Assembly: GCA_001600815.1 (NCBI GenBank)
Contig: BCKZ01000001.1
Location: 1,707,389 to 1,771,388 of the forward strand
Reading direction: 5' to 3'
DNA: 64,000 bases
From: Alloascoidea hylecoeti
Lineage: Eukaryota
Positions 8,204-48,400 of this stretch are shown piece after piece (the stretch's first letter is position 1; every line of letters starts with the position of its first letter). The notes beneath the pieces were generated by a model. The model made no database searches. It had not been told where the DNA came from and saw nothing but the letters and a program-made list of their open reading frames with translations. The position numbers and the translations under genes were made by a program.

Positions 8204-8305
8204 GCTCCGTTGGCTCAGTTGGTAGAGCGTCAGTCTCATATTAATTTCCGTGTCATACGAAAACGTGTGATCTGAAGGTCGAGAGTTCGAGCCTCCCACG
8301 GAGCA
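8204..8305 (+). tRNA. tRNA-Met(CAT), elongator type, with a 29-nt intron (8241-8269)
   Basis: Acceptor stem GCTCCGT/ACGGAGC, D-arm GCTC-AGTTGGTA-GAGC, anticodon arm TCAGT-CTCATA[intron]ATCTGA, T-arm GAGAG-TTCGAGC-CTCCC. Nearly identical to the yeast elongator tRNA-Met. A T5 Pol III terminator follows at 8311-8315. Confidence 0.95.
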
Positions 8306-37132: not shown

Positions 37133-37424
37133 ATATTCAAAATAGACAGAGATTAGTCAAGCAAAAGAAGATCTAGATAATAATTCTTACCATATACATA
37201 ATTCGTAGCATAACACAAAAATTATCCGCACCATTACTCCCCGTACAAACCCATTGGCACTGTAGATAAACATAGCAAAATTTAAATTCAATTCGATCGA
37301 CATTCTTGAGGATATAGGACTATATAATTCTCTTGTGTGTATGTTGAAGATAAGATATCAATAAACAGGCATAAATTAAAAAAAAAAAACAAGTTGCTCT
37401 ATTTTATCTTTTCTTAATAAGTTA

Positions 37425-37621
37425 CAGTTTTTCCATTCTGAACTCGCTGCATTGGAGAGACATTTTCGTTACTTACGTGAGGGAATTGTCAGATTATGGC
37501 GAAATAAATTAAAGCCAAATAGCGGTTACGCCGGAAACTATTTATCAGATGTGCCGAAAATCTACACACGTAGATGACGAGAATGTCTCTCCAGTATGGT
37601 AAATTTAGATGGGAAAAACTG
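37425..37621. mobile_element. Tc1/mariner-type MITE (197 bp)
   Basis: Imperfect TIRs of about 55 bp (cagtttttcc..tggagagacattttcgt..tacgtg / cacgta..acgagaatgtctctcca..ggaaaaactg), flanked by TA on both sides. Confidence 0.88.
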
Positions 37622-37638
37622 TAATTATTGTGATAGGC

Positions 37639-37713
37639 CTAGGGCTTCATTATGTTAGGGCTTTTGCAATCGTTAGCTTTCCTTTTAAAAAAAAATTTTC
37701 TTCTGAAAAAATT
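37639..37713 (+). promoter_or_regulatory. snoRNA-gene-type promoter: two Tbf1-like sites and RRPE-like motifs
   Basis: ctagggct (37639) and ttagggct (37655, reverse complement AGCCCTAA) match the aRCCCTaa Tbf1 motif of yeast snoRNA promoters. aaaattttc and tgaaaaaatt are RRPE-like. Confidence 0.6.
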
Positions 37714-37827
37714 ATTCAAATAATAAAAATTTTACCAAATTTGTAAGTTGAAACATTAACCCCATCTTTCATGATATTCCATAGTATCCTAATGAGATGG
37801 AGAAACTTGAAGGTTTATAATTAATGC

Positions 37828-37906
37828 TTATGTGATGATTCTATGTACTGCGTTATCGATCTGATTACAACTGAAGAGATAATACAAGAACCGCTACTCT
37901 GATTAA
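37828..37906 (+). ncRNA. Intronic box C/D snoRNA with two guides (snR68-like and snR50-like)
   Basis: C box GTGATGA 37832-37838, D' CTGA 37861, C'-like TGAAGA 37872, D CTGA 37899. The D' guide CTGCGTTATCG complements 25S CGATAACGCAG. The D guide AGAACCGCTAC complements 25S GTAGCGGTTCT. Confidence 0.88.
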
Positions 37907-38409
37907 AGTCTTATAAACTCGAATAATATCTTCACACATTATTCTAATAATTAAATTTTTAACTAACCGATATATTTATACATTAGTTTATACCTTCATT
38001 TAAGTTGATCTTAAGCAAATATATTTAGATGTTCTAGCTAGGCCTTTGAGGTACAAGTATTATGGGTGCAAATTGAAAATTGGAAACGTGGTCGTACTTC
38101 GGTAGTTCCTTTTTTTGTGCTATCTGCTCATGGTATTTCCCATAATGAATCCACTTCCTATTTACCAACACAAGCTCGATCAGCACAGTTTTAGGATTGG
38201 TCTCGCTCGACATCTGATTCACATAGACTTATGGAGTGGTTTCCCCTCAAGGTCAATCCCTATAATTGATCGCACATGGTTCATTACATAGGTGAAGTTC
38301 CACATGTTTCCGTAAGCGTGGCTTTCAGTGTTCTTTTTTTTTTCTTTTTTTTTTTTCGCTAACATTAAATTTAAACGAAAGCTACCATCGAGAGACACTT
38401 CTAAATGGA

Positions 38410-38544
38410 CATCTTCAAGTCCCAATGAAAGAGCTTTCAGTTCTTGTAAGTTCTTTCCACTAGCTAGTTAGAAACCGCTTGGATTGAAGTTGCGTAGCAC
38501 CATCTGACAAGAAGTGAAAGCTCTTTCATTAGGACTTGAAGATG
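38410..38544. repeat. 41-bp inverted repeat (38/41 matches) with a 53-nt spacer
   Basis: catcttcaagtcccaatgaaagagctttcagttcttgtaag (38410-38450) versus ctgacaagaagtgaaagctctttcattaggacttgaagatg (38504-38544). Confidence 0.92.
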
Positions 38545-40001
38545 AGAAATTCGATGCCAAGCTTGAGATTTACAAGCGTAATAAAGATTAAATTTGGGGA
38601 GGTTATAATAATAAGTCTTATAGTTTTACATTGCTTATAGTTTATTTCGTAATACAAATTCATTCTTTCTTCACAAATGTTAATTTTTATCACAAATCTC
38701 GTGATCTTTCAGTCCACATATATAGCTTAATAAACAGACATTCCAACAGGTTATGAGCGCATCTTCCTCTTCGCTCCAGGACATTATCTTTTTAACACAT
38801 TAACTCAGACGGCTTTCATTGGTCAATCAGATACAATCACGTGGTGATTGCTAACAATTGCAAGGTCAACTTTCCCTGGGCTTTAATACAAAGAAAGAAT
38901 GAAAGAATGAAAAAAAAAACTGAGCTCCAGATCCTTTTGCCAGATGCTTTGTATGAAGTTACTTTCTCAAGTATAACTTGTAAAAATAAAAATAATAAAT
39001 TAAATGTGAATAATTGACCTATATTCACGATTGTGGATGAATCTATGTGTATAGGTATATTTTTACCGTTAATTAACGTTAACGTTAACTGGCCCCGCAG
39101 ACCTTGCAATTAATTAATGGCATTTAACGTTCTGACAGCATGCATAAATGAGCCAACATGTATAATATCTGTCTTGTTTTGGTTAACAATATTTTTGAAA
39201 AAGGCATTTAATGAGCAAAAATGGTTACTTTATAATCTGAATGATGTAATTCAAACAAAGGCAAGGAAGTAATGCTATACTAGCTTTAATTTACCATCTA
39301 AATTTAACTCATAGAATGGTTATAGCGATCGCGATCGCTCTAAAGCTTCTAAATTCATACAATACTAATTGCAATTGGACAATTAGTATGATTCGATGAT
39401 TTATAATTATAACATATGATTAACTTCATGACATCAACCCCCATGGCCAGCAGTATTGATATTAACTATTAACCGTTAATATGTATAACCGTGACCATTT
39501 ACCAAATTTAAGTCAATTTTAACTCAAAGATTTTCTTTTAAAATAATAATGACAAATATCTAAATTAAAATACAACTCTGTATATTATATTTATACAATC
39601 ATGTAGATCAAGAAAGGAATGATCAAAAGAATTGAAAGATATCTACTAACATTATAATTCTATACAATATTAATTGATATAACATATAACTTATACTCAG
39701 TAGAAATAATATATATTTATGGTAATGGAAAAAAAAAGAAAAGGAAAAAAAAGTGTACCAACTAGTACCGAACATTCATGATAATCCTTCATATATAGTA
39801 ATAGTAATGGATATATAAATTCAAAAAGTATAGGAAATTTAGATTCCAGCATAAAAATAAACGACCTATATCCAGTGATATAAAAATGATACTGAGACAT
39901 AATGGTGAATCCATAATTTAAATATATAGTAATTATAAATGATATAAACCCGTAAGCTTGTTATGTTTTTATTGTTTTTTTGTGATAATCGTTCTACTTA
40001 T

Positions 40002-41102
40002 TTAATACTGACTGGCAGTTGGGTCCCGTTGTCTCAAGTCATCAACAACGCTACCAAGTAATCTTTCAAATCCTTGTTTATCTAAAACCACTAATTTCAA
40101 GTCTTGGTCACCTGAAACAGTGACAGTTGCTTGTCTTGGTACTTCATGTAATAAAGCCACTTCACCAAAGTAATCACCCTTTGTTACTTTTTGAACGATT
40201 TGTGAATCCTTTGAAATCTCAGCTTCACCGGATTCAATAATAAAGAATTCAGTACCAATATCACCTTGCTTGACGACAACTTGCCCTTTAGTAAAAGTTT
40301 TAGAAGTTAAAGCATCTGCTAGTTTTAAGATATCATAACTTGATAATGGTTTTAAAATTGGAACATCACGTAAGAAACCTTCATATAGACTTCTTTTTCT
40401 TGCTGTAGCATCTAATAAGATCCTCCTGAAAGTGATTCTATCTAATGCCCAAACGATAACATCTGTTTGTGCTTGAACGGTAGCTGCTCTTGGAGAATTA
40501 TACATCAAAGCTAGTTCACCAAATGAACCACCAGGGCCAGACTCATTAACTTTTTTATCATTGACAATAAAATCAACATGTCCAGACTCAATGCAGTAGA
40601 AAAAGTCACCCTCATCACCTTGAGTAATAATCTTATCATTCGTTTTAAATCTTTTTTCTTCTAGTGCATGAACAATGGACTTCAAGGATTCTGGGTCGAT
40701 GTTAGAGAATAAAAATGACTTTAAAACAGTAGATTCAAGTCTTGACAATTGAGAAGGGGTCAAAGGATGATAAGGTGGTTTCCATTCTTTGGAAGAAATG
40801 GAATTGGGATTCATTGACTCAGCAGAAACAGAATCTCGACGAGGATTAAATCCACCAGCTAGGAATTTTCCTGTTCCAAGACCACGGGAATCGGCAAATG
40901 ATTTCTTGAAAAGACCAAAACCACCACCAAAGGCAGTCTGAGCTCGTCTGGCGGAGTGCAATTCTGGTAAAGAGTCCCTTGACTCATGTGGGGACGGAGG
41001 GATTCCTGATGGGCTCTCTGGGATGGACATTGAAATAAGAGATGGTTTGGTTGTGAGTACAATCGAGTGAGTTGATAAAGGACATAATATACACCCAGAC
41101 AT
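40002..41102 (-). CDS. BCY1: cAMP-dependent protein kinase regulatory subunit (alternative start at ATG 41030)
   Basis: RRDSVSAES inhibitor site and two cNMP-binding domains (FGELALMYNSPRAAT, YFGEVALLHEVPRQAT). Confidence 0.95.
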   Translation of the reverse strand: MSGCILCPLSTHSIVLTTKPSLISMSIPESPSGIPPSPHESRDSLPELHSARRAQTAFGGGFGLFKKSFADSRGLGTGKFLAGGFNPRRDSVSAESMNPNSISSKEWKPPYHPLTPSQLSRLESTVLKSFLFSNIDPESLKSIVHALEEKRFKTNDKIITQGDEGDFFYCIESGHVDFIVNDKKVNESGPGGSFGELALMYNSPRAATVQAQTDVIVWALDRITFRRILLDATARKRSLYEGFLRDVPILKPLSSYDILKLADALTSKTFTKGQVVVKQGDIGTEFFIIESGEAEISKDSQIVQKVTKGDYFGEVALLHEVPRQATVTVSGDQDLKLVVLDKQGFERLLGSVVDDLRQRDPTASQY

Positions 41103-45466: not shown

Positions 45467-48400
45467 TTATGTATGTGATAATTTTTGCTGAGTTCGTAAG
45501 CCATTGGTAGTTTGTTCTCGGCTTCGTCGCTTATCTCGTTTGATTGTCCTTTCTAACGTCTTAGATCTATTGAATAACTCAACAATGAACCTCCTGGTTA
45601 TATGTCGATATCTATACTTTTCTAATAGTTTCATGGCTTCCATAAATAATTCAGGAGACTCAAACTTATCTCGATTTTTTGACTCAAGCTTGCTTAATTC
45701 TTTGGCTGCATTAGTTGCCAACATATGATTACTGAGATTGCTTAATTCTATAATGATCTTTTTTTGAATTGGGTCCAGTAATACACTAGATGTATCTGTC
45801 TGCTCAACATTTGTTTCTATTAATTGATCATCAGTTATTTTGATATCATCACTAATTATAGAAAGATCCTCTTTTTTAATATTACTTGTAATTTCCATTC
45901 CTAGTGGGATGCAATATCCCTTAGGATTCCCAATACTGTCAGATACAGAGAGCCAATCAAATTCCTCAAGAATTTCCATTCCTTCAAAGGTGCTAGAAAT
46001 TAACCCCAATGCGAAATAAGCAACTCCTTTCAAACTCCAAACCTCTGAATTTTGGCACATGCCAATAATTTCTTCGATAATACCACTAGCTTCAAGATAT
46101 GAAATACCTAGTTTTGACGATCCAATATGCCCAATAGCCCATAAACATCCCTTAAGTTGAGTAATTATTGTTTGATCTTTTGATTCCATGGAATTTTGTC
46201 TAACAAAACTACACATCTTACCAAAGTTCCCTGATCTTGTAAGTAATTGACAACCTTCTTCCGTTTTAACCAATTCTCCAAAAAAATGATGAGTTACCAA
46301 GAATCCATATTTTTTCTTATCAGGTTCTAATGAATAGTATTCTCTATTAATAGCCATTTCAACTTGATGTGCATATAATGAATTTTTGTAATTAAACCAT
46401 GAATTCATCTCTTCATCAACATAATTGATTTCTTTTAAATATTGAAACCCTTCAGATGTAGATAAAAATCTTAATAATAATGGTGAGCCAATAAATCCTA
46501 ATTGATCCAAAGAAGGATGACTTTTAATAACAATATGCATATTTTCATCATTTCGACAAAATTCATATAAAATTTGAACAGCTAGGTTACAAACATCAAT
46601 ACTTGGATCATATAATTGAGTTACTAATTGTTTAACTGCCCATGTTTTAACATTTTGTTGAGATTCAAGTAATTTTCTTAAATGTTTTGTTGCAAATAAA
46701 CGAGTACTTTCATTTCCAATGGTTAATATTTTTGATAAAATGATTCTTGGATGACTAACAAGAGAATAATCAAATGAAGAAATAAAATACATCTTTAAAT
46801 CATTCCTATCTTCCAATTCAACAATATGATAAATCATATTAAACATCCTCCACCTTTCCATCATTATTATACCATTTTTATGTGCACTTAAGACTCCCAA
46901 AAATGCAAAATATCCATAACTAATAGTAATATCTAATCTTTGTTCAGAAAATAGTGGGTCAGCAGAAGATATACCACTAGTTGGATCCAATTGTGCCAAA
47001 CATTCAGCAATTTGACGTAATAATTTATTCTCTGATAAATATCGAGCTCCTTCATCACAACAAAGTAAAGTTTTAAATAATTCTTTACCTAATCTTATAT
47101 ATAAAAGATTTGATTTTGTTCTTTTAATTGCACTAAATCTATATTTAAAAGGTCTATAAAAAGACATTAATCTTTTCATAAATTTTGTACTTTTAATAAC
47201 TTCTTCTAATCTTTTAGGATTTCTTAAAGGACCTTGTACAAATTCTGTAAGTTCTTTCCAATCCCATTCTTTCGATGATTTTGTTGTTAAAACTAAAGTT
47301 TTACCAAGAGATTGTTTAAAATGTGTATCATCAATTTCATAATTTAATTTAGCTTGTAAATTCTTTGATGCGGTAGCAGCATATTCTTCAGTTTTTGGTT
47401 TTCTTGGCTCAATGATTGAATTTGTTGTTGGATGGGTTGAAGTATTTGGTAATTGTGATGGATCCATAGATATAGACCGTGTAGCACCATGTGAACCTTT
47501 TGGAGCAGTTAGTTTTGCTTTATTTAACATTTTAGTTATTTTTTCAATTCGATAAATAGCAACCATATAATGTGGTTTTTGTTCACCTTCTTCGGGTCCA
47601 ATTAAAGATAATTCAACCAAACTAGGGAATGTGAATTTATTCTTCCATACTTCAAGTGGTAAGACATTTGAAGCAAGATTAGCCATTTCAGATAGTAATA
47701 ACATTGCTTTACTACTATTTAGTGTATCAGAGTTTTCTTCAATGATTGATATTAATAAAGTAGTAATATCACATTTAATAAAAATAAACAATAATAAGGA
47801 CATAAAATGATTTAAAGCTCGATATTCAATACCAGATCCAGAATTTGGTTCTCCACTTTTATCTTCAAATTGTTTTGCATAACTAAGTGACCCTTTACCA
47901 TTTGCTTTTTGTAACCAAGGAAGTTTTCTTATTCTTAAGATATCAGAAACAATATCCATAATAACATCCCTTAAAACGGGTATTGAATAATGAAGACAAT
48001 TAACTAAACATTGTATAGGCCAGAAATTATCAAATGCAAAACTAATTAAACCAGGCCATGTTTTGAGAAAACCAGTTAAAAGAAAAGCACTATTTTGTAA
48101 CCTTTCAATATTTACATGTCCTTTTGTTTGAATATCAGTGAATGTTGTTATTAAGTACCTCATATCATAACCACCTCGAAGATATCTTCTTGCTTCTGGT
48201 TTGTCAAGAACACTTAAGAAACTCATGGTACATATACTAGCTAGATCTCGTGGGCCTTCTGTAGCACATTGAATCATTATTTTAACACCACCTCCTTTAA
48301 AAACAACTTCAGGATTCATAATGAAAATTTCAGCTAAAGTTTCAATACAAATGTATCGTAATTTATCATCAGTTTGATCAGCGATTGCAGCTAAAGATCT

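Follow-up and report, generated by a model that had tools for sequence, protein, structure and literature searches.

A predicted intronic box C/D snoRNA carrying the guides of both yeast snR68 and snR50

The predicted snoRNA locus and its candidate host intron

The window, i.e. the entire 64-kb stretch of yeast DNA under consideration, contains on its forward strand a predicted box C/D snoRNA lodged within a candidate spliceosomal intron (Table 1). The features characteristic of the class can be recognised in it: a C box of the RUGAUGA form, a CUGA D box, a terminal stem and an internal, closely spaced D'/C' pair, together with guides of at least 10 nt at D and D' that set a methylated nucleotide opposite their fifth base, this last feature being evident from identity with the published L2640 and L867 guides. 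The first-pass annotation, made from the letters alone, had described four canonical boxes and two 11-nt antisense elements. Both elements were located, one upstream of D' and one upstream of D; the description of the boxes holds for C, D' and D and was slightly generous for C', which departs from the consensus UGAUGA at one base. The box spacing is typical of such RNAs: a 22-nt spacer that ends in CTGCGTTATCG-AT separates C from D', 7 nt separate D' from C', and a 21-nt spacer that ends in AGAACCGCTAC-T separates C' from D. Five bases 5' of D' stands T37856, opposite an A, and five bases 5' of D stands C37894, opposite a G. The 9-bp outer stem joining the C and D boxes appears in both the minimum-energy and the centroid folds. 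The overall folding energy of the region is unremarkable (z 0.44), as is usual for box C/D snoRNAs.

Table 1. Features of the predicted snoRNA and of its candidate host intron, in window coordinates
Feature	Position	Strand	Basis or remark
Candidate spliceosomal intron, 244 nt	37743..37986	+	consensus splice signals only
5' splice site GTAAGT	37743-37748	+	consensus
5' arm of 9-bp outer stem, GGTTTATAA	37812..37820	+	fold prediction
Predicted mature box C/D snoRNA, ~79 nt	37828..37906	+	ends inferred
C box GTGATGA	37832..37838	+	sequence inspection
D' antisense element CTGCGTTATCG, 11 nt	37848..37858	+	complement of 25S 5'-CGAUAACGCAG-3'
D' box CTGA	37861..37864	+	sequence inspection
C' box TGAAGA	37872..37877	+	7 nt 3' of D'
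D antisense element AGAACCGCTAC, 11 nt	37887..37897	+	complement of 25S 5'-GUAGCGGUUCU-3'
D box CTGA	37899..37902	+	sequence inspection
3' arm of 9-bp outer stem, TTATAAACT	37911..37919	+	fold prediction
Branch site ACTAAC, branch A 37966	37962-37967	+	consensus
3' splice site TAG	37984-37986	+	consensus

The snoRNA is separated from the 5' splice site by 84 nt, and the branch A comes 64 nt after the D box, in agreement with the distance of about 60 nt to the branch point originally given. The same succession of signals, GTAAGT...ACTAAC...YAG, is found again in other candidate introns of the window. The candidate intron has a G+C content of 28%, against which the two guides stand out. The host transcript appears to be non-coding, because stop codons interrupt all three frames on both flanks of the intron.

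The host region is flanked by two long hairpins on the forward strand, which are the longest among the eight inverted repeats of the 16-kb neighbourhood. The first of these (37446-37600), long and nearly perfect, lies about 150 nt 5' of the intron; its predicted energy is -57.1 kcal/mol (z -6.1), and none of 200 shuffles folds equally well. It is present as a single copy in the window and draws from Rfam only weak matches, all to generic miRNA precursors. Its loop includes TAGCGGTT, an 8-nt complement to the D guide of the snoRNA that may be due to chance. By way of speculation, this hairpin could serve the host transcript as a processing signal of the RNase III type. The second hairpin (38410-38544), about 420 nt 3' of the intron, has 41-nt arms of 93% complementarity (-64.9 kcal/mol, z -7.8), is likewise unique in the window and has a GTAAGT just inside its stem.

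Identity of the guides and of their predicted rRNA targets

File S1 of van Nues et al. 2011 (PMC3116282), where yeast box C/D snoRNAs are aligned beneath lines displaying their rRNA targets, provides the reference for both guides in its snR68 and snR50 alignments. There, the S. cerevisiae snR68 row contains ...TACTGCGTTATCGTATTGA..., with ...ACTGCGTTATCGT preceding the D' box, the label L2640 and the target line 3'-GACGCAAUAGCA-5'; the S. cerevisiae snR50 row contains ...CAGAACCGCTACACTGA, with ...CAGAACCGCTAC-A-CTGA, the label L867 and the target line 3'-GUCUUGGCGAUG-5'. Both 11-nt guides of the window are identical to these published guides, letter for letter and in the same fifth-base register, the D' guide to that of snR68 and the D guide to that of snR50: T37856 is the T of ...TATCG... 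which faces A2640 in snR68, and C37894 is the C of ...CCGCTAC... which faces G867 in snR50. The full D' guide recurs in 18 of the 26 snR68 rows of this alignment, with the remaining eight beginning ATGCG..., and the D guide core GAACCGCTAC is invariant across all 23 snR50 rows. Judging by the S1 target lines, the predicted duplexes would be of 11 bp each and would cover rRNA positions 2638-2648 and 864-874 in S. cerevisiae numbering. In the entries for these sites in Table 1 of Sloan et al. 2016 (PMC5699541), 25S-867 Gm is attributed to snR50 only and 25S-2640 Am to snR68 only, and neither snoRNA is given another site. The two sources bear out the earlier assignment of the D' guide to Am2640 (snR68) and of the D guide to Gm867 (snR50), as well as the statement that S. 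cerevisiae divides the two sites over two single-guide snoRNAs. The claim that a single intronic snoRNA carries both sets of guides stands at the level of sequence: the RNA predicted in the window has the guides of both snR68 and snR50.

Several controls bear on the reading that the locus is a chance look-alike or a dead relic which yields no stable RNA. A search for the boxes alone (C, 15-30 nt, D', 3-12 nt, TGANGA, 15-30 nt, D) produced one match on the forward strand of the 64-kb window and none on the reverse strand, and 200 simulations of that sequence with a first-order Markov model never gave rise to this layout. The joint arrangement of the two guides has a single match in the window and was absent from all 100 shuffles. 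Taken singly and with at most one mismatch, the two 11-mers found at least one match in 23 and 24 of 100 shuffles; as the single guides are not rare by chance, the weight rests on their combination and register, the combination being far beyond chance. The two-guide pattern had no matches in metagenome_contigs and none in genome_contigs (prokaryote, 596 billion bases), and this lack of an orthologue in either set would fit a fortuitous or decayed locus. Such a locus is nevertheless very improbable given the failure of the simulations to produce the box layout, the exact match of both guides, in the correct register, to two known modification guides, and the suitable placement of the whole inside a candidate intron.

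A different reading would have the snoRNA be real with just one of its guides acting, either because the C'/D' pair is inactive or because a separate snR68 elsewhere in the genome serves A2640 and the D' element is redundant or decaying. The single-base deviation of the C' box is compatible with this, as are the redundant guides reported in fungi in the part of Canzler et al. 2018 (PMC5824354) that deals with them. With one mismatch allowed, neither guide recurs in the 64-kb window, which argues against a redundant guide, and we consider this reading unlikely. A rough search of the window for other C/D snoRNAs yielded a single, unconvincing candidate (46939-47063, reverse strand).

A 3,406-nt contig from a wood-decay metagenome spans positions 37466-40871 with zero differences and is therefore from the same species. 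Two runs of other organisms, taken from the same study, leave the snoRNA without coverage. A contig from the wood-decay run X4 joins position 37389 to 39807 and so skips 2,417 nt, the entire snoRNA host region among them; the shorter side of the junction has 22 letters, and seven unrelated letters lie between the two sides. An artefact at A/T-rich repeats, or an origin in another organism, most likely accounts for it, and we set aside its interpretation as a deletion allele.

Comparison with Rfam had been suggested as a check on the annotation. There is no gathering-score match at 37828-37906. In a scan of 97 nt, all seven weak matches were to box C/D families on the forward strand, and the best of these was snoR27 (RF01287; 20.0 bits against a threshold of 41, E 0.47), which aligns ACUGCGUUAUC-AUCUGA and UGAAGA. 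Since the Rfam listing collapses overlapping matches of the same clan, it displays the best clan member, here snoR27, without a score for RF01235 itself. RF01287 and yeast snR68 (RF01235) share clan CL00079, and the portion of Hoeppner and Poole 2012 (PMC3511168) that covers them lists the two as counterparts which target one and the same adenosine of the LSU. The sub-threshold match is thus to the clan of snR68, and the result is a hint of, and not membership in, that clan. The sole gathering-level Rfam match in the window is a tRNA gene (8204-8305, forward strand, 50.7 bits), whose anticodon loop is followed by 31 inserted nt that are presumably a tRNA intron.

The rRNA side was approached with a 15-nt motif of the A2640 site, by which at least 117 metagenome loci were fetched. 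Among the matches listed, 16 have an LSU context, the remainder look like chance matches in other DNA, and none is yeast rDNA. Rfam confirmed full LSU genes in both loci tested (L050 and L019), and in this eukaryotic LSU rDNA the 11-mer target of the D' guide places the targeted A at 2637 in the LSU of L050 and at 2685 in that of L019. L050 comprises a full SSU-5.8S-LSU unit, in which the LSU site is the sole all-Watson-Crick pairing of at least 11 bp available to the D' guide; L050 having been selected by this very motif, only the uniqueness of the pairing counts as evidence. A stretch that is homologous with the G867 site is situated 1,745 nt (L050) and 1,750 nt (L019) upstream of the A2640 site, the corresponding distance in S. 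cerevisiae being 1,773 nt, and it lies about 1,730-1,830 nt upstream in six loci among the matches listed. None of these six non-yeast LSU loci has the exact yeast 11-mer of the G867 site, each differing by at least one base, and the D guide forms no run of nine or more pairs there. The metagenome LSU loci thus confirm the spacing of the two target sites but not the D target itself, which, for want of an exact 11-mer in the six loci, rests on the published yeast alignments. Both rRNA targets are inferred from other yeasts, and the 25S sites of the host are predicted to read CGATAACGCAG and GTAGCGGTTCT, about 1.77 kb apart.

Relationship to known snoRNAs and the lineage of the host yeast

The 26 snR68 and 23 snR50 rows of S1 (PMC3116282) are all separate single-guide RNAs, and none carries both guides; the snR68 rows extend from Saccharomyces to Kluyveromyces, Wickerhamomyces and nine CUG-clade species. 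With snR50 the RNA of the window has in common the D guide core, its register before CTGA and the target 25S Gm867, as seen in the aligned rows of S. cerevisiae and 22 other yeasts. By eye and over short stretches, it also resembles the Wickerhamomyces and Scheffersomyces rows of that alignment in the bases that follow the C box (GATGATTCT) and in those that precede the D guide (GAGATAA..TACAAGAACC). The snR50 gene of C. parapsilosis, too, is intronic, and its host transcript is non-coding (Donovan et al. 2016, PMC5033589). The difference lies in the D' region: van Nues et al. call the C'/D' motif of snR50 guide-less in their treatment of it, and all 23 published rows are devoid of an A2640 guide there, whereas the window RNA has a perfect one and so departs from the single-guide form of snR50.

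With snR68, it shares the antisense element for 25S Am2640, which is placed upstream of D' as it is in budding yeasts and plants. The window RNA lacks the accessory element TTAACAG (pairing with L2630-2639) that is conserved within the second guide region of the aligned budding-yeast snR68 rows, lacks their unusual D' (ATTGA/CATGA) and C' boxes, and falls far short of the length of the S. cerevisiae row, in which there is a 27-nt insert; conversely, the G867 guide occurs in 0 of the 26 snR68 rows of that alignment. The snR68 of S. pombe differs further in having its guide in the D position: it is intronic and single-guide, the guide standing directly before the 3'-terminal CTGA (25S-Am2734, 12/0; supplement of Diao et al. 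2014, PMC4138321).

In the whole S1 file, GCGTTATC occurs 27 times, i.e. in the 26 snR68 rows and in one filamentous-fungus row before the D box of an snR56-type RNA, and AACCGCTA occurs 24 times, in the 23 snR50 rows and in one snR56-type row. A guide marked 'cf snR50' is annotated in the D position of snR56-type RNAs from some filamentous fungi in that part of the file (PMC3116282). Thus, to judge from S. pombe snR68 and the snR56-type rows, the A2640 and G867 guides are borne by different carriers in different fungal lineages. In the snR66 alignment of S1, six filamentous-fungus rows have ...TGCGTTATGG... before the D box, a stretch left unlabelled by the authors there; it is one base off the A2640 guide, and these rows may carry that guide in those fungi.

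The neighbouring genes place the host yeast. An agmatinase-type protein has its best named match in Sugiyamaella lignohabitans (70% identity), and in a tree of Bcy1-type proteins the window protein, on a long branch, groups with Nadsonia, Yarrowia, Sugiyamaella, Magnusiomyces and Geotrichum with a support of 99/99. This tree is of one gene with a midpoint root, and includes 23 named yeast homologues, one for each named species from 120 listed matches, with unnamed ones excluded. The Bcy1-type ORF itself (40002-41102, reverse strand, 366 aa) matches the cyclic-nucleotide-binding part of its homologues, many of which also have PF02197, a dimerisation domain at the N terminus; probably either another exon of the gene lies upstream or the start of the ORF is miscalled.

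The Yarrowia/Nadsonia-type group is represented by no row in the snR68 (26 rows) or snR50 (23 rows) alignments of S1, and Y. lipolytica is present in other alignments of that file. Because the host lineage is outside all the yeasts sampled for these two snoRNAs, it is quite possible, although we hold it only tentatively, that the dual guide is the ancestral state of budding yeasts, retained in the Yarrowia/Nadsonia-type lineage, and that snR68 and snR50 of Saccharomyces, Candida and their relatives are duplicates which each lost one guide. Duplication followed by specialisation is a live option for snR72/snR78 in the relevant discussions of Liu et al. 2009 (PMC2780460) and Canzler et al. 2018 (PMC5824354), and would lend such a history a parallel. 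Against it, snR68 of S. pombe stands alone with its single guide in the D position, and snoR27 includes the plant counterpart of snR68 (PMC3511168, in its entries for that clan), in the family consensus of which only the D' guide stretch looks conserved. These single-guide forms in S. pombe and plants suggest that a free-standing snR68 predates the budding yeasts. The searches of metagenome_contigs and of the prokaryote genome_contigs, which brought up no second dual-guide copy, also speak against an ancestral dual guide.

Probable function and origin of the dual-guide RNA

Most likely, the locus produces a functional box C/D snoRNA from an intron, and both of its guides are active, as suggested by the concurrence of boxes, stem, guide register and intronic placement. 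In the manner general to intronic C/D snoRNAs, RNA polymerase II would transcribe the non-coding host gene, the 244-nt intron would be spliced out and debranched, and exonucleases would trim it to a particle assembled on C/D and C'/D' with Snu13, Nop58, Nop56 and two copies of the methyltransferase Nop1. The biogenesis of intronic snoRNAs is summarised for Candida by Donovan et al. 2016 (PMC5033589). The D' guide is predicted to pair over 11 bp with the equivalent of 25S 2638-2648 and to place a 2'-O-methyl group on A2640; the D guide, with 11 bp at the equivalent of 864-874, would methylate G867. A single RNA would in this way do the jobs of both snR68 and snR50. The observations that tell against this account are the sub-threshold Rfam score, the lack of two-guide matches elsewhere, the deviant C' box and the inexact G867 site in the six LSU loci.

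As to its origin, the RNA probably has an snR50-like backbone. This is favoured by the intronic location of C. parapsilosis snR50 in a non-coding host, by the similar flanking letters noted by eye, and by the absence of two marks of snR68, its accessory element and its peculiar D' and C' boxes. An snR50-type gene that was already intronic in a non-coding host and had the G867 guide at D would then have gained the A2640 guide in its idle D' position, either through recombination between two snoRNA-bearing introns or through capture of a guide. We lean towards such a gain having taken place within the lineage of this yeast: a later merger is slightly more economical than an ancestral dual guide, as the lone snR68 of S. 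pombe and its plant counterpart in snoR27 argue that the lone form of snR68 is old.

Precedents for such merging are presented by other fungal snoRNAs. The relevant part of Liu et al. 2009 (PMC2780460) speaks of 'extensive separation and recombination' of guide elements and equates N. crassa CD5 with snR72 plus snR78. Recombined snR78/72 and snR61/U45 introns are described in the corresponding section of Luo et al. 2013 (PMC3596301). An snR78/72 RNA is on record for Yarrowia (Y. lipolytica) and filamentous ascomycetes, and an snR61/U45 hybrid for Candida (PMC5033589; PMC3596301, same section). Such reshuffling of guides is discussed as target switches, with the snoStrip clans CD_5 and CD_19, in the pertinent part of Canzler et al. 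2018 (PMC5824354). N. crassa CD5, Y. lipolytica snR78/72, Candida snR61/U45 and CD_5/CD_19 are all like the RNA of the window in that one dual-guide RNA takes the place of two single-guide RNAs of S. cerevisiae. These merged or split snoRNAs are likewise intron-borne, and intron recombination, or duplication followed by loss, has been proposed for their origin; they differ in involving guide pairs other than A2640 with G867. We did not find the pairing of snR68 with snR50 described in the literature on these two snoRNAs, a scope beyond which lie the per-family tables of Canzler et al. 2018 and Mitrovich et al. 2010, where it may already be listed. What is new is this pairing, the merging and splitting of guides in fungi being already known.

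The combination of A2640 with G867 would add a third documented type of guide pairing to the merged or split snoRNAs of fungi, and the yeast lineage in which it occurs has had little coverage in snoRNA catalogues. With relatives of the host surveyed, the locus would offer a clean test between the splitting of dual guides and the making of dual guides by intron recombination. Should the ancestral reading be true, with the dual guide surviving in the early-branching Yarrowia/Nadsonia-type lineage only, two textbook snoRNAs of S. cerevisiae would be the halves of one ancestral gene. The dual guide by itself leaves the understanding of how box C/D guides act unchanged. As pure speculation, a single particle holding 25S 867 and 2640 could link stretches about 1,770 nt apart during late folding, an idea prompted by the late placement of both methylations in S. 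cerevisiae, where the entries for the two sites in Table 1 of Sloan et al. 2016 (PMC5699541) time them as 'late nucleolar/nuclear'.
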